A stretch of DNA of 64,000 bases from an uncultured Candidatus Saccharibacteria bacterium (GTDB lineage Bacteria; Patescibacteriota; WWE3; 2-01-FULL-39-13): assembly GCA_965230915.1 (NCBI GenBank), contig OZ246395.1, positions 728,935 to 792,934 on the forward strand. Reading direction: 5' to 3'. Below the pieces are notes generated by a model. The model did no database searches. It saw only the letters and a list, made by a program, of their open reading frames with translations, and had not been told where the DNA came from. The position numbers and the translations under genes are program-made. Positions 10,226-19,177 of the stretch are shown one piece after another (position 1 is the first letter of the stretch; each line of letters begins with the position of its first letter).

Positions 10226-10582
10226 CTACTTATCGTCCGGTAACAAAAGTGACAAAATTCCGCTAACAACAGACATTAAAATACTTAAACCGAGTGCCCA
10301 TAAAAAGTTATCGATGGTAAAACCGGGAACTATCAAGTCAACAAGCATAATCATTAAGGCGTTAATAACCAATGAAAAAAGGCCAAGAGTCATGATATTA
10401 ATTGGTAAAGTAAGAATCATTAAAACTGGCCTAATTATTGCGTTAATAAGTCCTAAGACAAAAGCAACTAGAAGTGCAGTTAAAAAAGTATCGATTTTAA
10501 CGCCATCTAATATTGATGTACAAAAGAAAACTACAATTGCGGTTCCGATAAGTCTTATTATAAATCCAAGCATGTTGTTCAC
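10226..10582 (-). CDS. 4-TM membrane protein, phage-holin-4-like (YvlD/PF04020-like)
   Basis: 118 aa, four hydrophobic helices. The sequence pattern (..LNA.IRPVL.ILTLP..I.TLGLF.L..N) resembles B. subtilis YvlD family proteins. Confidence 0.6.
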   Translation of the reverse strand: MNNMLGFIIRLIGTAIVVFFCTSILDGVKIDTFLTALLVAFVLGLINAIIRPVLMILTLPINIMTLGLFSLVINALMIMLVDLIVPGFTIDNFLWALGLSILMSVVSGILSLLLPDDK

Positions 10583-10660: not shown

Positions 10661-11566
10661 TTATTTCGTAAAAAGTATAGAAAAATAACTTGTAGTCTGA
10701 ATTGTATTATTTTCTAAAATTTCTCCGGAGTTTGTATTAAACAAAAGCTCCTGTTTTTTTGCGTTAATTGATTCCATTAAGTGCAAAAGTAACCCAATAG
10801 AATCAGGGCTATCTACATAATCATTATTTAAATTGCTTAAACTATAATAATCGTAACTACTCATTATTTTTTGAGTAACTACATCATTTGCCTTCGCCTG
10901 ATCTGCATTTAAATAATGTGAAAAATCGACGGCAGCAATAACTACGGTATCTTCGTCAATATACTTTTGTAATTCTACAGTTAAATTCGAAATATCTTCT
11001 TGGGAAGTAAAACCGCTTAACACAACCGGGATAACCTGAGCCTCGGGCAAATAATATTTGATGTAGTGCAAAATTCCTCCAATTGAATGCTCACCTATTA
11101 CTACATCGTCATTTTCTATTAATGTGTTAGATTCAACTAACATAGAAATATCAGCATAATCAGATGCGAGTATTCCATGTTCTGTTTTCCAATTCGCCTT
11201 CGATGTTATTGGCCGAATACCTCCACGTTCATGATGATTTGGCCCAACTAAAATTATCTTTTTAGGATTTTGCGCAGATAATTTTTCAAAAAAGTCTGAA
11301 AGTATGTATCCGGGCAATAAGTGGTGCGGAATTATTCCGCCATAAATTTTGTTTCCACTGTATGAACTTTTCACCTTTTGGGCTTTTACAATTCCTTCCT
11401 GAAAATCTTTTGCGGAATAAAATCTTGCGTTTAAAACTTTGTCGCTTTGGCGTGCATTATTAACGCCTAATATTCTTAATTTGTCTAAATCTATCGGATA
11501 AATTGTGCCTAGTACAACGCCCAATATGGCAAACGCACAGATAATAAGGCTAAGTTTGAGGTTCAT
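10661..11566 (-). CDS. MEMO1-family protein (AmmeMemoRadiSam system protein B-like) with N-terminal signal anchor
   Basis: Motifs GGIIPHH, LVGPNHHERGG and AAVDFSHY (MEMO1/LigB-like fold). N-terminal hydrophobic segment LSLIICAFAILGVVLG. The start overlaps the upstream giant gene by 17 nt. Confidence 0.75.
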   Translation of the reverse strand: MNLKLSLIICAFAILGVVLGTIYPIDLDKLRILGVNNARQSDKVLNARFYSAKDFQEGIVKAQKVKSSYSGNKIYGGIIPHHLLPGYILSDFFEKLSAQNPKKIILVGPNHHERGGIRPITSKANWKTEHGILASDYADISMLVESNTLIENDDVVIGEHSIGGILHYIKYYLPEAQVIPVVLSGFTSQEDISNLTVELQKYIDEDTVVIAAVDFSHYLNADQAKANDVVTQKIMSSYDYYSLSNLNNDYVDSPDSIGLLLHLMESINAKKQELLFNTNSGEILENNTIQTTSYFSILFTK

Positions 11567-14500
11567 TTTTCTTACTTAAATCTCTTCTTGGTTTTCTGAT
11601 TACCTTTACTAAGAATACTATTATTGCGATTGTTGCAATTCCATACAATACTATTTGCCATTTTGGTGTACGTGCAACGGCAACTTTTCCGGATTCTATT
11701 AAATTAGCATCGTCTTCTATTAAGTATGGATATGCATATGTGGCGAAGTTTCGATAATCGTTACGCAAACTCTGATCGCCTAGTGCATTTGCATCAGCCA
11801 AATCTGTGCTTTCTTTTGTAATACTGATTTTTGCGGCATCTGATCTTCCGTGAATTTCAGGCGAATACATTAACGAAGCCGTAGCAGGAGGCACTTCATA
11901 TGTTCCCTCGGTTATCGCACGTGCCTTGTAATTTAGATAAGAATATCCGCTCCTATAGCTGTAGGTGTATCTGATGGCACCATTTTGCGTATATTCGTCA
12001 CCTGAATAATAGTCATAACTATCACCTGAGCTAAATTGTTCATTATTAAACGATTCATTTACAGGAACTAGTCCGGCAGGCAACTCATCTTGAATTACTC
12101 CATATCGGCTTTCTGACTCGTAATTATTCTTAACTTGAACATATACATCAACTAAATCACCAACAGCAATTGACTTACCTGCACCTTTTTCACTTACGTA
12201 CGCTCTCTTTACGTCTAAACCTGTCGACATAGCCTTTGTATTTGGATCTGTATGGAATTCCTTAACCATCATCGAAGTCAGCAATTCACCTGTGCCATCC
12301 TTGGTAATTTCTAAATTAGAACCACCAGCTTTTATAGAATAACTTGGAATTGTTATTTCTTTAGGTGCTTGCTCAAGACTTGTAAATCTTCCGGTTGATA
12401 ATATTGCCCCATCTAAAGAGACTGTATATGAATAATTTGTGTTAGCTAAATTTTGAACTTTTGCGTATTCAGAAATCGAAGCCATAACTTGAGCGGTTCC
12501 ATGTGTATTGCCCCAGAAATAATTTCCTTTTGCCTGATTTAAATATTTAATTGTTTCTTTTAGAAGTTCTTTTTCTGATCCATTAGCAATTATTGCCCGT
12601 ACAGCTAACGCAGTTGCACTTTGATTAGTACTGAATGTTTCAGAATTATTACTTTCCCAATGGGCTAAACCAGATTGTCTTTTAGCCGAAGAGACTAATT
12701 TTGTTAAGCCTGACTGGTTCGAATCTTTAATACCACGGTTTGAATTTATTATGACAGCCAAAGCGTTTGCCTCGATTGATAACCCTTCAAAATCATTTAT
12801 AGTTTCAGTGTTCTTTCCTAATACTTCGAGGCCATATATTGAATAAACTTTTGCAGATTTATTTTCAGAATTTAATTTTGATTTAAAATAATTTTCTGCG
12901 TTATCTAGTGTTGTTTGGTTTACTTCGTATCCAAGCTGTTTGGCCTTCATAAGATTTTCTACAATATAAGCAGATAAATACTCATTTGAATCTCCGACAA
13001 AAACCCAGGTCCAACCGCCATCACCTTGTTGATGGTCTTCGATGCGTTTAACTCCGTCTTTTAGAATCTCGTCCATGTTTTTATCGACCATTGCAGATGC
13101 AAACACTTTAGGATTGCTTCTTGCAACAATAGCAGGAACAAAACGGCTTGTGGTTTGTTCCATACATCCGTATGGATAATCAACCAAATAATCCATTGCC
13201 GGTCTTAGTGACCCTAATATATCCGCAGAAACACTTAATTTAGTGCTGCTTAAATCGTTAACTGCATCAGATGAATATTTTGCTTGATATGAAGCATTAT
13301 CCTGTTTGCTTTCGACGCGCTCTTCGTAAAATCCGAATTTCTTAATTGGAATAACTTGAGCTATGGTGTCAGAATTTTCTTCTGCTGATTTAGAAACAGC
13401 CGAATAAGTAAATTTAGCTTTATCATCTACTTTAATTGGCTCAACATTCCACGAAACTGTTGCTGATTTATTTGGCTCGATTCTTACTTCTTGAGTTGCA
13501 GAAGGTAATATATTTGCAGCCTCTGATCTTAGGGTCACATTAAAAGTATCAGCATTCTTGGTATAGTTTTGAACTAAAGCAGTCAAAATCGTTGTATCGC
13601 GTTCTCTTATGATATTGGGAATTGTAGGTCGAACAATCACATTTTTGCCTACAACAATTTCTTCTTTGGCAATTCCAACTTGAGTAGTTGTATTTGCTGC
13701 GATTCCAGCGATTACCCAGGTTGTTAAATTATCTGGAAGTTTAAATGATACGCTGGCTTTTCCTTCAAGGTCAGTTCTAAGTGATGGATTCCAGTATGCA
13801 GTATCTTTAAACACAGTTCTTGTGTCACCTTTTTGGTTGTGTACCCAAACTCCGCCGGCAAAATATGTGTGATATTTTTCAACTTCTAAATTGTATACAT
13901 CAACTGATCTATTTATTATCTCGATTGAATTTACATGTACGTATTTACCTTCGTCACTAAGTAATAAGTCTCCTTTTTGTACAGTTCCGGCTTCTTGCCA
14001 AGTATTGTTAATCCACATCACATGATTAGGAGTAACCTTTATGCTTCCGTTTAAAATCATGTAGCCGTTTACTGACTTTTTGAAAGTCTCTGTTACGGTT
14101 GCTTCAACTAATTTTGTGTCATCTTCGCCGGCTTTAGTTAGAACTTTATCTCCGACTTTTATGTCTTCGATCGAAACCAATCCATTCTTGGTTAATACTT
14201 TAGTGTCGCCTACAAAACATCCACCGCCGCTTTCTGCACCTGAAGAACTTATACCTTGTAATGAATTTGTAGAATTTGTGTCGTTGTATCTTTCTGACCA
14301 AAACCTATCCAGAATATCGTAGTTATTTTGATCAACCAGTTCAAAGATCGCTTTATCTACTGTCCATAAAGCCATGTCGGTTGAGACAGGTTTATTGGTG
14401 CTGTCAGTTGTAGTAACGTCGACTGTAATATCTTCACCCGGGCCATATCGCGACCCACCGCGTGGAGTAATCTGTACATTTATTTTCTTGTTTTCGGTTG

Positions 14501-16910
14501 AAATTACAATGTTTTCGGAACTGCTTATTATAGATTTTCCATCAAAAGATGTAGCCACAACAAAAACGTTTGGCGAATCAGTGTTAACAAGGGGAACGTC
14601 TATGTTTGCAGTTCCATTTTCAATTCTAGTTGTAAAGTATCTTTGTGTTCGTCCTCTTTCTAAAGTTATTAATGCATCACGGTTGGACTTATCTTCAGTT
14701 GTAATTAACACTTTTGCTGTATCTTCAGGGTTATAGAGTTTTTTATCTACGCTAACGCGCATATTTGATTGGCCATAGTCGCCAAACCCGTAATATGAGG
14801 AATATTCTTTTTCAGCAATATAGAAACTAAAATTACGACTTATTTTATTTCCTATAGAATCTGAATATTTAATGGTTATCGTATAACTTCCAGTTTCTGA
14901 TGGTGTAAATTTATAAGTTAAATTTCCTTCTCCATCTGTTTTTATATTTTTCGTATCAATTTCACCTCTAACTTCCTTATATGATGGATATTTTTGATTT
15001 TCTTCATAAACGGCTTCGTATCTCATCCATGTACCGGAAATTTCTACATTTATATTTGAAACTTTGCTGTTGTTTCGGTATGCAACAATTTGCATTGGAA
15101 TTTCAAATTGCTTATTAACAACTCCTCCATATGGAGCATCTTCTTGTAGATAAACATTCGATTCGCCTTTGTAAAAGAGGATGTTTTTCCTGGCAAAACT
15201 TGGGTTTCCGGAACCATTATCGTATTCAGCTTCGATAGTTAAAATCTGGTTTGATTTATACGTATCACCCAAATTTATATCTTCATCAAAAATTGCTTCG
15301 CCATTATCATTAAACTCTAGCTCTCCGTGTTTAAATTCGCTTCCGTACCAATATCCGTATCGATAATCGTCGCTAAGACCTTCGTTTTGGTAGTCTCGAT
15401 AGTAATAATAATCGTAATAATCAGCAGAATAGATTCTATAGCTTACCTTTCCTTCGGTAATTGGTTGACCAGAGAAATAATTTCCTAAAGCTTTAAAATA
15501 TAATCTGTCTCCGGACACATAATCTTTGTCCTCAACAGAAAGATCTATGTTGTATTCGGGTTTTCTATAATATTCGACCTGAAAGTATTCGCTTGCCGGA
15601 TAATAATAGTCATCTGGATCATGCTGAACTATTGGGTATTCGATGCTAACACTGTAATCACCGGTTTTTGCGTTTTCTGGTAATTTATAAGATCCATAAA
15701 TTGTTCCCTCTGGGGTTATATTCATTCGTGCGCTATATACAACCGATGTATCTTCCCAACCATCTTTGATTTGTACTAAAGCTTCACCGCTTGGGATAGT
15801 GTATCTGGCGTCGTCATCAGACCTTATGATCGCTTTAAAATTTACTGTGTTTCCCGGCATATAAAGCGGGCGATCAGTAAAAATGAAGAATCTTGTGTTT
15901 ATTTCTTTTTCTCTAAAGTAATCATAGTTATAGCCGTAGTCTACGTATTGTAAATTTAGAGGAATAACTGCCACTTCATTTCCGCGGTATACAACAGCTA
16001 AATCACCTCTACTTAGTATTGGAGTTGTTGCAATTCCTTCTGAATTAAACCTTCCATTTGCGACTTCAGTTACTTTGTCAGCCAAATTAAAAACTTTTAT
16101 GTTGCCGTCGTCGATGCTTTCGTTAACTTTTAAATTTTGTCCCCAATAGACAATTTCATTGTTGCCTTCTTTAGAAACAACTGCGTAAGTCGACCTTACA
16201 ATAAAGGCACCATCATTAGTTTTATTAGCCGTATCAGATGCGGTAGCTCTTACAAAATAAATTCCAGATTCATCTAGCGGAAGTACCACTTTAGTATCTG
16301 ATGAATTTTTATCTGCAATATTAACTTCTAATTCTTTTACTAATTGTGAATTGCTTTCATTAAAAGGATTTTTTGTTTTATAGTCTTCTGTTTCATACAC
16401 AAGGGAATTTAAAACGTCAGATTCGGATGCGCGATACAGTTTAACCGTAACTTTACCTGTAAATGCACGGTTTGACAGATAAATAGCCGGTTCTTCAAGA
16501 GAAGTAAGCGAAATTAATTGAGAAGGAGAATAATCGCTTCCGTTTTCTAAAATAATAAGTTCAGGATCTTGTTGGTAATAGTAATCTCCAAAATTATTCT
16601 GCTGGCTGGTGTTCTGATTACTTTGAGTGGTTTGAGTATTATTTACTGCAGGTATAGCATTTTGCCTTTGAATATCCTGATAAATTGCAGCCAAAACATA
16701 CACTGTTGAAAATATTAGAGACGAAAGAACAATAAAAACCACTCTACGAAATCTTTTTGACTCTTTGAATCTTTTAAATGGATTTTTACTTTTTTTGACT
16801 TCTTGAGGTTGGTTGTTTTTGTTTTTTTTGATCGGTTCAGCGGTCATGTTTGCGTGATCACCATTTTCTTCTGAAATAGCTTGATTTAAATCGGGTTGAG
16901 ACTTAGCCAT
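11550..16910 (-). CDS. alpha-2-macroglobulin family thioester-containing giant surface protein with an embedded Hint/BIL domain. It has both an N-terminal signal anchor and a C-terminal TM anchor.
   Basis: 1786 aa. Thioester motif YGCMEQ (CxEQ) at aa 1249-1252. Conserved pre-bait segment MALWTVDKAIFEL and post-bait segment TRTVFKDTAYWNPSL...LPDNLTTW. TED-like HQQGDGGW. N-terminal TM (RRVVFIVLSSLIFSTVYVLAAIY), C-terminal TM (IVLYGIATIAIIVFLV) plus a basic tail. Tyr-rich low-complexity runs. AGAGG RBS 6 nt upstream of the ATG. Confidence 0.85.
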   Translation of the reverse strand: MAKSQPDLNQAISEENGDHANMTAEPIKKNKNNQPQEVKKSKNPFKRFKESKRFRRVVFIVLSSLIFSTVYVLAAIYQDIQRQNAIPAVNNTQTTQSNQNTSQQNNFGDYYYQQDPELIILENGSDYSPSQLISLTSLEEPAIYLSNRAFTGKVTVKLYRASESDVLNSLVYETEDYKTKNPFNESNSQLVKELEVNIADKNSSDTKVVLPLDESGIYFVRATASDTANKTNDGAFIVRSTYAVVSKEGNNEIVYWGQNLKVNESIDDGNIKVFNLADKVTEVANGRFNSEGIATTPILSRGDLAVVYRGNEVAVIPLNLQYVDYGYNYDYFREKEINTRFFIFTDRPLYMPGNTVNFKAIIRSDDDARYTIPSGEALVQIKDGWEDTSVVYSARMNITPEGTIYGSYKLPENAKTGDYSVSIEYPIVQHDPDDYYYPASEYFQVEYYRKPEYNIDLSVEDKDYVSGDRLYFKALGNYFSGQPITEGKVSYRIYSADYYDYYYYRDYQNEGLSDDYRYGYWYGSEFKHGELEFNDNGEAIFDEDINLGDTYKSNQILTIEAEYDNGSGNPSFARKNILFYKGESNVYLQEDAPYGGVVNKQFEIPMQIVAYRNNSKVSNINVEISGTWMRYEAVYEENQKYPSYKEVRGEIDTKNIKTDGEGNLTYKFTPSETGSYTITIKYSDSIGNKISRNFSFYIAEKEYSSYYGFGDYGQSNMRVSVDKKLYNPEDTAKVLITTEDKSNRDALITLERGRTQRYFTTRIENGTANIDVPLVNTDSPNVFVVATSFDGKSIISSSENIVISTENKKINVQITPRGGSRYGPGEDITVDVTTTDSTNKPVSTDMALWTVDKAIFELVDQNNYDILDRFWSERYNDTNSTNSLQGISSSGAESGGGCFVGDTKVLTKNGLVSIEDIKVGDKVLTKAGEDDTKLVEATVTETFKKSVNGYMILNGSIKVTPNHVMWINNTWQEAGTVQKGDLLLSDEGKYVHVNSIEIINRSVDVYNLEVEKYHTYFAGGVWVHNQKGDTRTVFKDTAYWNPSLRTDLEGKASVSFKLPDNLTTWVIAGIAANTTTQVGIAKEEIVVGKNVIVRPTIPNIIRERDTTILTALVQNYTKNADTFNVTLRSEAANILPSATQEVRIEPNKSATVSWNVEPIKVDDKAKFTYSAVSKSAEENSDTIAQVIPIKKFGFYEERVESKQDNASYQAKYSSDAVNDLSSTKLSVSADILGSLRPAMDYLVDYPYGCMEQTTSRFVPAIVARSNPKVFASAMVDKNMDEILKDGVKRIEDHQQGDGGWTWVFVGDSNEYLSAYIVENLMKAKQLGYEVNQTTLDNAENYFKSKLNSENKSAKVYSIYGLEVLGKNTETINDFEGLSIEANALAVIINSNRGIKDSNQSGLTKLVSSAKRQSGLAHWESNNSETFSTNQSATALAVRAIIANGSEKELLKETIKYLNQAKGNYFWGNTHGTAQVMASISEYAKVQNLANTNYSYTVSLDGAILSTGRFTSLEQAPKEITIPSYSIKAGGSNLEITKDGTGELLTSMMVKEFHTDPNTKAMSTGLDVKRAYVSEKGAGKSIAVGDLVDVYVQVKNNYESESRYGVIQDELPAGLVPVNESFNNEQFSSGDSYDYYSGDEYTQNGAIRYTYSYRSGYSYLNYKARAITEGTYEVPPATASLMYSPEIHGRSDAAKISITKESTDLADANALGDQSLRNDYRNFATYAYPYLIEDDANLIESGKVAVARTPKWQIVLYGIATIAIIVFLVKVIRKPRRDLSKKNEPQT
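13155..13166 (-). other. thioester site CMEQ (CxEQ) of the alpha-2-macroglobulin homolog
   Basis: tgt atg gaa caa on the minus strand, in the context DYPYGCMEQTTSRF. Confidence 0.8.
13836..14219 (-). other. Hint (intein-like / BIL-type) domain, aa 898-1025 of the alpha-2-macroglobulin homolog
   Basis: Block A CFVGDTKVL (Cys1), block B KVTPNHVMW, block F VYNLEVEKYHTYFA, block G GGVWVHN. Codons cac-aac-caa show that the +1 residue is Gln, not Cys/Ser/Thr. Confidence 0.8.
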
Positions 16911-18316: not shown

Positions 18317-19084
18317 CTAAAAAGTAGATATAAATCCCCTTAATTTTTGAGGAAAAATATCGTCTAAAGCTAGAATATCAGAACTATATATTTCAATAAG
18401 ACCTAAATTATAATTTTTATATAACTCTTGTTTCCGTTTTTTCCTCTCTAAATATTCCTTATCTTTAAGACCCCAGTATTCAATATATATAACATCATGA
18501 CTAGTAGAGCTTGGTATAAAAAAATCGCAATACATTTCTTCTTTAATCGGAACTTTCTTCTCATACCCGTGTAAAATTTTACTGTTAAATAACCAATTAT
18601 CTATAATTAGCTCATCCATACTTCTAACTCTATGGCCATCGTCTGCAATATATTTGGCCGGAAATTTATTTCTAAAAACATTACCTAGATGATCTTCTCG
18701 TTGAGTGGACCTATACATATTGTCCAACGCCTGTGTAATATCAGGTTTTAACAATACAGGCATAAAATCTCGAAATTTAATTAAGTTTTCTATATCCGAT
18801 TTTGAAATAGGATTGTAATTCTCAACTCTTTCTACTTTAATTTGCCATGGAAATTTCCCTCCCCAAGCTTCTTTGACAATATTGACGCTACATTTAGATA
18901 TTGCCCTGAATTTTCCATGCAATAAACCAGATGTGTAGTTATAAAGGAAAAGAGTATCTCCAACATTAATATCTTCAGTGTACGGTTTGTACTTTAGAGT
19001 TCCTCCAAATAGCATTCGGTTGAAGCACTCTTTTTCCGTCGCATTTGAACATAAAAATATATAGCTTTTCTTTGCATCATTCAT
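18317..19084 (-). CDS. DCD-domain (PUA-like, EVE-related) protein with C-terminal Vsr/DUF559-like endonuclease-like domain
   Basis: N-terminal YIFLCSN..EKECF..MLFGG.....I.VGDTLFLYNYTSGLLHGKFRA...FPWQIKV matches the DCD signature (FGLP / LFLFNY / PAQV blocks). C-terminal CDFFIP..(11)..VIYIEYWG.....R......L...LGLIEIYSSDI resembles the YxvDF...IEvDG...R...L..GW.VlR core of Vsr-like PD-(D/E)xK domains; this is tentative. The start was set at Met16 to clear tRNA-Ser. Confidence 0.6.
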   Translation of the reverse strand: MNDAKKSYIFLCSNATEKECFNRMLFGGTLKYKPYTEDINVGDTLFLYNYTSGLLHGKFRAISKCSVNIVKEAWGGKFPWQIKVERVENYNPISKSDIENLIKFRDFMPVLLKPDITQALDNMYRSTQREDHLGNVFRNKFPAKYIADDGHRVRSMDELIIDNWLFNSKILHGYEKKVPIKEEMYCDFFIPSSTSHDVIYIEYWGLKDKEYLERKKRKQELYKNYNLGLIEIYSSDILALDDIFPQKLRGFISTF

Positions 19085-19089
19085 ATTTC

Positions 19090-19177
19090 TGGCGGAGGGG
19101 ACAGGATTCGAACCTGCGGTGTTATTCACACACTACCTTTCCAAGATAGCGCACTAGACCAACTATGCGACCCCTCC
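19090..19177 (-). tRNA. tRNA-Ser (anticodon GGA), type II with long variable arm, CCA encoded
   Basis: GGAGGGG acceptor, anticodon loop UUGGAAA, variable arm GTGTGTGAATAACAC, T-loop TTCGAAT, 3' CCCCTCCGCCA. Confidence 0.9.

Follow-up and report, generated by a model that had tools for sequence, protein, structure and literature searches.

Alpha-2-macroglobulins (A2Ms) and complement proteins are defined by proteolytic activation at one loop. Bacterial intein-like (BIL) domains of type A, which a C-terminal His-Asn pair separates from those of type B, can ligate their flanks without a nucleophile at the following (+1) position, a freed amine attacking the thioester (reviewed in PMC4031507), and BIL2 of Tetrahymena forms an isopeptide between a C-terminal Gly and a Lys (PMC8616854). 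The locus described here combines features of both families. It lies in a 64,000-nucleotide stretch of contig OZ246395.1 (the window, by which we mean the whole stretch analysed), where a gene for a 1786-residue A2M-family protein carries a Hint domain of the type A BIL kind in the bait loop. A domain predicted to make and break peptide bonds in the activation loop of a thioester protein is a new combination.

The Hint domain occupies residues 898–1025 (window positions 13836–14219), exactly where a sequence-only reading of the window had placed it, and all four Hint blocks listed in that reading are present. The best-scoring Pfam model is PT-HINT (PF07591), with 69.4 bits against a cut-off of 27.7. 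The NCBIfam models of the N- and C-terminal intein splicing regions match as well, the C-terminal model alone reaching its curated cut-off. The closest solved sequence is the BIL domain of C. thermocellum (2LWY), aligned over the full length at 35% identity (E = 5e-18). The AlphaFold2 prediction gives the domain a predicted local distance difference test score (pLDDT) of ~90, and in a Foldseek search with a separate model of the Hint and its flanks Tetrahymena BIL2 (6Y75, E = 3e-11; 6TMM) shares the top rank with 2LWY (TMt 0.84), followed by mini-inteins and Hedgehog (1AT0). By its Cys1 (Cys898), TxxH motif, C-terminal His-Asn (His1024-Asn1025), lack of a +1 nucleophile and of an endonuclease, and predicted fold, the insert belongs to the A-type BIL/HINT family. 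The +1 residue is Gln1026, encoded by caa at 13833–13835 of the (-) strand, which excludes class-1 splicing. On this point the sequence-only reading was right, but the loss of canonical splicing does not confine the domain to cleavage, as type A BILs can ligate their flanks by amine attack (PMC4031507). No second Hint copy is found within the window.

Three other identities were considered for the insert and rejected. An ordinary class-1 intein is contradicted by Gln at +1, the missing endonuclease and vertical inheritance (see below). A pretoxin HINT would be followed by a toxin, but here the C-terminal flank consists of the A2M, TED and MG10 domains and a transmembrane segment, and the downstream gene is Memo-like. 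A compositional island is at odds with the G+C content of the insert, which equals that of its flanks.

Profile searches, proposed in the sequence-only reading as a check, return the Pfam domain order MG2 (residues 340–444), A2M_BRD (718–858), PT-HINT (905–1026), A2M (1037–1127), TED (1226–1343) and bMG10 (1564–1685). The CMEQ thioester motif is found at residues 1249–1252, its Cys1249 located 224 residues past Asn1025 as had been claimed. Domain content and the thioester motif make the host a type I (thioester) bacterial A2M, and both ECAM and SaA2M match it at the sequence level. An AlphaFold2 model of residues 600–1745 has a mean pLDDT of 85, and its best structural matches are native A2ML1, ECAM of Escherichia coli and SaA2M of Salmonella (Foldseek E ~1e-43 against 5A42 and 4U48). 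Cys898 and Cys1249 are the sole cysteines of the protein, i.e. both are thioester cysteines, so there is no lipobox Cys. Transmembrane segments predicted at the two termini would anchor the protein in the membrane at both ends; hydrophobic segments are found at both termini in most relatives, Hint-bearing or Hint-less.

Four lines of evidence place the Hint in the A2M bait loop and agree with the position given in the sequence-only reading. A profile built on the segment that follows the Hint aligns Arg1031, which is invariant among relatives, to residue ~704–707 of human A2M, the point at which the bait of the human protein ends on its C-terminal side. The same profile aligns Arg1031 to residue 87–88 of the C5 alpha-chain, just past the C5a/alpha' boundary and about 13 residues past the convertase site. 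ECAM can be aligned on both flanks of the Hint, up to its residue ~883 and again from residue ~962; residues Arg923–Leu942 of the ECAM bait are disordered after elastase cleavage (PMC4498604). In the AlphaFold2 model, a confident all-beta Hint (residues 898–1025) stands between two linkers with pLDDT <50 (residues 883–896 and 1027–1038), candidates for a flexible bait that proteases could reach. Finally, close relatives that lack the Hint carry at the point of insertion a poly-Gly linker, ...AEKGG-GGG-D.R(S/T)xFKDTAYWNP. The scissile Asn1025–Gln1026 bond is 5 residues ahead of Arg1031.

The bait regions of Hint-less relatives and of the distant A2Ms P0127, P0129 and P0131 are centred on 5–8 glycines. 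A poly-Gly sequence is unusual for a protease bait. It might point to glycyl-glycine endopeptidases as preferred targets, or be no more than a flexible hinge.

The A2M-plus-Hint architecture is present in at least 177 homologues, and within a large A2M clade, mainly of Patescibacteria, most members carry the Hint. A full-length search retrieves ~60 A2M-plus-Hint relatives at 33–61% identity and ~15 Hint-less ones (the window protein is P0053 of this collection). In an exhaustive HMMER search with residues 700–1350 against 1.84 billion cluster representatives, 130 of the best 150 matches carry the Hint and 20 lack it. When one genome per species is scanned for patterns, with the Hint and its flank as the query, at least 576 relatives are found, a figure that does not count Hint-bearing genes because one of the two patterns also matches Hint-less A2Ms; the best 80 loci were retained, nearly all via the Hint. 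Those of the best 80 with credible labels are nearly all from Patescibacteria (Daviesbacteria, WWE3, Woesebacteria, Moranbacteria, Pacebacteria, Peregrinibacteria, Peribacteria, Magasanikbacteria and others).

Many TPA_asm contigs of metagenome-assembled genomes among the same 80 loci are labelled ‘uncultured Gammaproteobacteria’, ‘Pseudomonadales’ or ‘Bdellovibrionales’, and a few are assigned to Methanoperedens or Bathyarchaeia. Mislabelling or contamination of the bins is the probable cause, and the labels were not used. One relative bears the automatic UniRef name ‘Intein C-terminal splicing domain-containing protein’. In the 311-kb Amesbacteria contig_55612 (L001, 10001–12717) the A2M-plus-Hint gene is split into short open reading frames, and P0002 is only 481 residues long; either assembly frameshift errors or a pseudogene would account for the broken gene.

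The junctions are conserved across 161 full-length Hint-bearing relatives, on which all conservation figures are based. Cys1, His66 and the terminal His127-Asn128 of the Hint are present in 100%, Phe2 and Thr63 in 99%. The residue before Cys1 (-1) is Gly in 161/161 and the one before that (-2) is Gly in 97%; on the other side, +2 is Lys in 96% and +3 is Gly in 91%. The +1 residue, whose identity in homologues the sequence-only reading had singled out for checking, is Q in 76, D in 35, E in 27, G in 11, K in 4, N and S in 3 each and L in 1, and Cys and Thr do not occur. As +1 is never Cys or Thr, the chemistry open to the family is of the BIL type and not class-1. Every Hint contains exactly one Cys, and 97/161 proteins contain exactly two. 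No degenerate Hint was seen. The C..EQ thioester motif is kept in 154 of them and in all close Hint-less relatives. The remaining seven (P0253, P0256, P0258, P0262, P0263, P0270 and P0130) have lost the thioester and retain an intact Hint with Cys1, His-Asn and +2 Lys, so retention of the Hint is independent of the thioester.

In a crude neighbour-joining tree, Hint-less proteins arise within Hint-bearing groups at some ten or more separate points. The clearest case is the pair of Hint-bearing P0098 and Hint-less P0120, whose exteins are 72% identical and whose loci are syntenic (methyltransferase, radical-SAM gene, A2M, Memo-like gene). The bait site reads QQAEGGG-GGDGG-RSIFKD in P0120 and QQSEGGG-Hint-QKGYA-RSTFKD in P0098, and the two are of equal length once the Hint is removed. 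A scan of ~1,650 extein columns finds one strong discriminator between the two states, Lys at +2, which is present in 96% of Hint-bearing and 0% of Hint-less proteins; +1 comes next, and the remaining columns differ in frequency by no more than 0.43.

The distance between Hints rises ~1:1 with that between their host proteins at short range (0.28, 0.46, 0.58) before levelling off near 1.0, and the distance comparison contains no pair in which the Hint is much closer than its host protein. This pattern fits an old Hint that would have been co-inherited vertically under constraint. Recent lateral transfer of the Hint from one A2M gene to another was considered, because the Hints of the distant A2M subfamilies P0125, P0126 and P0130 show no greater divergence than Hints of the main clade show among themselves. 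It was rejected, given the monotonic, saturating curve and the lack of a close-Hint, far-host pair at short range. Constraint is the simpler reading of this curve, with ancient transfer as a conceivable alternative.

The closest Hints outside the A2M family belong to other Patescibacteria-like surface proteins (P0006–P0031), where poly-Gly precedes Cys1 and Lys follows directly after Asn, at +1. Some of these proteins carry two or three tandem Hints (P0006, P0021), and in others (P0007, P0009, P0012, P0013, P0022) the Hint is at the extreme C-terminus, with 1–14 residues after His-Asn. The same Hint subtype may be a general maturation or anchoring module of surface proteins. In Hint relatives of the toxin type, Cys is frequent at +1 to +3, in the place of the Lys of the A2M Hints.

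The conservation of the catalytic residues provides good support for a Hint that is catalytically competent at both junctions and under selection to remain so, and makes it highly probable that processing takes place in some form. Given processing, we consider the chances that the ends are joined again, rather than left open, to be evenly balanced. The reading we favour, tentatively and with a slight lean over self-activation of the bait, is re-ligation by amine-mediated splicing of the BIL type. After export and folding, Cys898 would attack the carbonyl of Gly897 in an N-S acyl shift, which creates a thioester at Gly897, and Asn1025 would cyclise, which breaks the Asn1025–Gln1026 bond; both steps are assigned by the chemistry of the family (PMC4031507). 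The 14-kDa Hint would depart from the bait loop, and the Gly897 thioester would be recaptured by an amine of the C-terminal flank, either the epsilon-amine of Lys1027 or the alpha-amine set free at Gln1026. Splicing of this kind, which needs no +1 nucleophile, would re-join the two halves, possibly through a Gly897–Lys1027 isopeptide. The mature bait, ...AESGGG-QKGDTR..., would be short and similar to that of the Hint-less orthologues, and the protein would function as an ordinary protease-triggered thioester trap. The Hint would then plausibly be a largely neutral resident of its host.

Three results fit an element that is excised and whose flanks are re-joined no less well than they fit a self-activating bait: the Hint has been lost cleanly and repeatedly, no strong covariation is seen elsewhere in the host and Lys is linked to the Hint at +2. 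They also fit a mature protein equivalent to the Hint-less form better than an open bait. The equal lengths of the two forms, the nested losses and the weak differences elsewhere likewise make the mature protein look like the Hint-less one. The poly-Gly and the Lys at +1 around the closest Hints of other surface proteins were also counted toward re-ligation.

Several points weigh against this reading. Cleavage products outweigh spliced ones for A-type BILs (PMC4031507, PMC7664689). With Ser, Thr or Cys at +1, splicing would be far more efficient, and a single mutation separates several of the observed codons from such a residue, so that its occurrence in only 3/161 relatives, all with Ser, is odd if selection favours efficient re-joining. 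The role of Lys1027 as the nucleophile is suggested by covariation and by analogy with one eukaryotic precedent. Moreover, the tree has short internal branches, and the number of independent losses is approximate except for the P0098/P0120 clade.

The main competitor, which we regard as possible but doubtful, is a bait that fires by itself. In this scenario the Hint would cut both junctions, or only the Asn1025–Gln1026 bond, the ends would stay unjoined and the bait would open without an attacking protease. The post-bait segment (Arg1031...Trp-Asn) would be untethered, as happens when elastase cuts ECAM and when C3 and C5 lose their anaphylatoxin domain, the protein would convert itself and the CMEQ thioester would become exposed. 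Conversion might run on a timer or respond to a cue (thiols, pH, metal or contact), and both chains would stay cell-bound via their own anchors. The dominance of cleavage in A-type BILs in vitro (PMC4031507, PMC7664689) agrees with this scenario, and so does the near absence of +1 nucleophiles in the 161 relatives, which counts against simple selection for efficient splicing and keeps self-activation alive. The geometry is suggestive too: the C-terminal scissile bond is close to an invariant Arg whose motif aligns with residues 87–88 of the C5 alpha-chain and with the place where the bait of human A2M ends. In ECAM the trigger is the untethering of the cut bait, where the post-bait Arg956 binds the C-terminal MG (macroglobulin) domain (PMC4498604).

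Each fragment of a cut protein would also keep a predicted membrane anchor, but this topology is found in the Hint-less relatives as well and is therefore not an adaptation to cleavage. A trigger switch would be expected to leave traces in the rest of the protein, but the ~ten Hint-less origins at the same loci come without strong covariation. The seven Hint-bearing relatives that have lost the thioester keep an intact Hint. Pure cleavage offers no obvious role for the Hint-linked Lys at +2, and a protein that fired unconditionally would lose its thioester to hydrolysis for nothing. A composite of excision and transfer is conceivable at a similarly low level of confidence. Here, Hint excision and not an attacking protease would be the physiological switch that opens the bait, a convertase-free analogue of the conversion of C3 to C3b, and the Gly897 thioester would pass to Lys1027 in cis, as a Gly-Lys isopeptide, or to a target protein in trans. 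Patescibacteria would thereby gain a surface trap or adhesin that acts covalently, on a timer or upon a cue, although this proposal, too, is on balance doubtful.

It is improbable that the Gly897 thioester serves as a second warhead. An outside nucleophile would resolve it, with the result that the N-terminal MG1–MG8 fragment becomes covalently attached to a Lys on a protease caught in the trap, to an amine of the cell wall or of a lipid, or to a surface molecule of a partner cell. In favour of this, BIL2, a joint top structural match, couples a C-terminal Gly to lysine residues on other proteins (PMC8616854). The conserved Gly-Gly at -2/-1 (97% and 100%) resembles the C-terminus of ubiquitin, but poly-Gly is also present in Hint-less relatives and is thus a feature of the host. 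Sister Hints at the extreme C-terminus of surface proteins have tails of just 1–14 residues, so only N-terminal cleavage or transfer can matter there. In the A2M family, however, His-Asn is 100% conserved, from which it follows that the reaction at the C-terminal junction matters too, and the conserved Lys in cis, 2 residues from the junction, favours an intramolecular acceptor. Both hypotheses of the sequence-only reading, a bait that cuts itself and a second thioester, are possible in the light of these data.

It is very improbable that the Hint is a folded, inert insert, that is, a structured plug or recognition module that undergoes no processing while proteases cut the linkers on either side. 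Both linkers (residues 883–896 and 1027–1038, pLDDT <50) would still be available as bait beside it, but the complete conservation of the catalytic residues at the junctions in 161 diverged sequences is unexpected for a non-catalytic domain, and no degenerate copies were seen. A mobile intein of the ordinary kind, or an artefact of assembly or annotation, has a negligible probability: the NCBIfam intein matches at both ends and one intein-type UniRef name are set against Gln at +1 here and never Cys or Thr in the family, a length of 128 residues without an endonuclease, a G+C content equal to that of the flanks, no sign of recent lateral transfer and an architecture reproduced in hundreds of independent assemblies.

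A Memo-like gene is found directly downstream of the A2M gene in 43 of the best 80 loci and on its upstream side in another 2. Orthologues with and without the Hint both have it as a neighbour. Patescibacteria possess a conserved A2M–Memo operon in place of the yfhM–pbpC pairing of E. coli. No penicillin-binding protein is present among the six nearest flanking genes of the A2M gene that were scanned against Pfam. At locus L083 the Memo-like gene is fused to a PGA_cap (CapA) domain. The Hint-less and Hint-bearing orthologous loci share a radical-SAM gene (ELP3-like, with an acetyltransferase region) and a methyltransferase gene immediately upstream of the A2M gene (L082, 994–2265; L083, 2527–3993); the genes upstream of the A2M gene in the window are instead AHSA1/SRPBCC-like and MBL-fold. 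Just downstream of the A2M–Memo pair (window 10226–10582, (-) strand), a 118-residue protein with four transmembrane segments belongs to the Phage_holin_4_2 family (110 bits). A 270-residue open reading frame at window 18317–19129 (-) matches the DCD (development and cell death) domain (PF10539, 83 bits). As the DCD domain is mostly known from plants, a small bacterial genome is an unexpected place for it. The window also contains the operons of the ribosomal proteins and of rpoBC, so the locus is chromosomal, and among named hits the RpoB encoded there is closest to that of a WWE3 bacterium (77%). The coordinates of the A2M gene, its parts and the Memo-like gene are listed in the table.

Table. 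Features of the A2M locus, given as positions in the window, in the order of the encoded protein
Feature	Position	Strand	Basis
Gene of the A2M family, 1786 residues	11550..16910	(-)	single open reading frame holding the Hint
Predicted N-terminal transmembrane segment, residues 54–78, after a Lys/Arg-rich cytoplasmic tail	16677..16751	(-)	hydropathy scan
A2M bait-region domain (PF07703), residues 718–858	14337..14759	(-)	Pfam and ECAM alignment
Disordered linker before the Hint, residues 883–897, ending ...AESGGG; -1 is Gly897	14220..14264	(-)	pLDDT <50 (residues 883–896)
Hint / A-type BIL domain without endonuclease, residues 898–1025 (128 residues)	13836..14219	(-)	Pfam, 2LWY, Foldseek
Cys898 (codon tgt), Hint Cys1, predicted nucleophile of the N-S acyl shift	14217..14219	(-)	read from sequence
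Block B, Thr960-Pro-Asn-His963 (TxxH)	14022..14033	(-)	conserved in relatives
Block G, His1024-Asn1025 (cac aac), predicted site of Asn cyclisation	13836..13841	(-)	read from sequence
Gln1026 (+1), Lys1027 (+2), Gly1028 (+3)	13827..13835	(-)	sequence and relatives
Linker after the Hint, residues 1026–1038, into the conserved R-x-x-F-K-D-T-A-Y-W-N motif	13797..13835	(-)	pLDDT <50 (residues 1027–1038)
A2M domain (PF00207), residues 1037–1127	13530..13802	(-)	Pfam
Helical thioester domain, residues ~1233–1486	12453..13214	(-)	Pfam TED and helical block, AlphaFold2 model residues 634–887
Thioester motif Cys1249-Met-Glu-Gln1252 (CMEQ)	13155..13166	(-)	sequence
Bacterial MG10 / C-terminal MG domain, residues 1564–1685	11856..12221	(-)	Pfam
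Predicted C-terminal transmembrane segment, residues 1749–1773, then a basic tail	11592..11666	(-)	hydropathy scan
Memo-like gene (PF01875, 74 bits) with an N-terminal hydrophobic segment, overlapping the A2M stop by 17 bases	10661..11566	(-)	

The sequence-only reading knew of no described A2M with a self-processing module in its bait, and we found no published description either: literature on macroglobulins with intein-like or Hint domains, or in Patescibacteria, yielded no account of the Hint-in-A2M architecture, and the one paper found on a macroglobulin in the patescibacterial literature only cites the SaA2M structure. The architecture is thus widespread in sequence databases and, as far as searched, undescribed, which should come as a surprise to both the intein and the macroglobulin/complement fields. 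A single chain is predicted to hold two thioester chemistries, the Cys-Gln side-chain thioester of the A2M and the backbone thioester of the Hint. If the Hint opens the loop, it would be a natural protease-independent trigger of a thioester protein, placed like the anaphylatoxin of C3 and C5. If the chain is re-joined via Lys1027, it would be a case of isopeptide-forming BIL splicing in bacteria, which in the literature found is reported only for a ciliate; a search for BIL domains together with inteins and aminolysis found no literature. In either case, a conserved cell-surface function for an intein-like domain would enlarge the sparse record of the little-studied Patescibacteria. P0098 and P0120 offer a natural control pair with and without the Hint, and a compact Hint of 128 residues with Gly-rich flanks might be of use in protein engineering.

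Among the known systems, A-type BILs are closest to the Hint itself. BIL4 of C. thermocellum (2LWY) is, like the window Hint, a HINT domain of ~130 residues with Cys1, TxxH and His-Asn and with neither a +1 nucleophile nor an endonuclease, and in both cases the host is an extracytoplasmic protein without a housekeeping function. The window Hint differs in its new host and site, the bait loop of a thioester A2M, and the A2M Hints differ in their conserved flanks, Gly-Gly at -2/-1 and Lys-Gly at +2/+3. They are also fixed at one site across a large clade, whereas BILs are scattered in hypervariable proteins. BIL2 of Tetrahymena thermophila (6Y75, 6TMM), encoded in the polyubiquitin-like BUBL locus, converts a Gly thioester into a lysine isopeptide, and the window protein likewise has Gly-Gly before Cys1 and Lys after Asn. 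Unlike the window Hint, BIL2 is eukaryotic and flanked by ubiquitin-like domains, and the two share ~26% sequence identity; attack by Lys in the A2M is suggested by this likeness.

Pretoxin HINT (PF07591) and Hedgehog domains use a Cys1 thioester to release or transfer a neighbouring module, as proposed for the window Hint. Unlike in the pretoxin systems, neither a toxin domain nor an immunity gene follows the window Hint, and Hedgehog autoprocessing domains lack the C-terminal His-Asn reaction. Hedgehog becomes attached to cholesterol and BIL2 attaches ubiquitin-like domains to other proteins, and both are models for ligation in trans.

On the side of the host, ECAM (E. coli YfhM) and Salmonella SaA2M share with the window A2M the MG ring, the bait domain, the CxEQ thioester and the C-terminal MG domain. 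ECAM is a lipoprotein encoded beside pbpC with a disordered bait that foreign proteases cut, whereas the window protein has predicted transmembrane segments at both ends, a Memo-like neighbour and a folded, predicted self-processing domain in the bait. In this last respect it resembles complement. In C3, C4 and C5 a folded, removable domain splits the same MG domain just before the N-terminal motif of the alpha' chain, and conversion of C3 and C5 consists in the removal of this anaphylatoxin domain. The anaphylatoxin is a helical bundle cut out by convertases, whereas the Hint has a beta-fold and would remove itself, so the likeness is one of position and not of homology.

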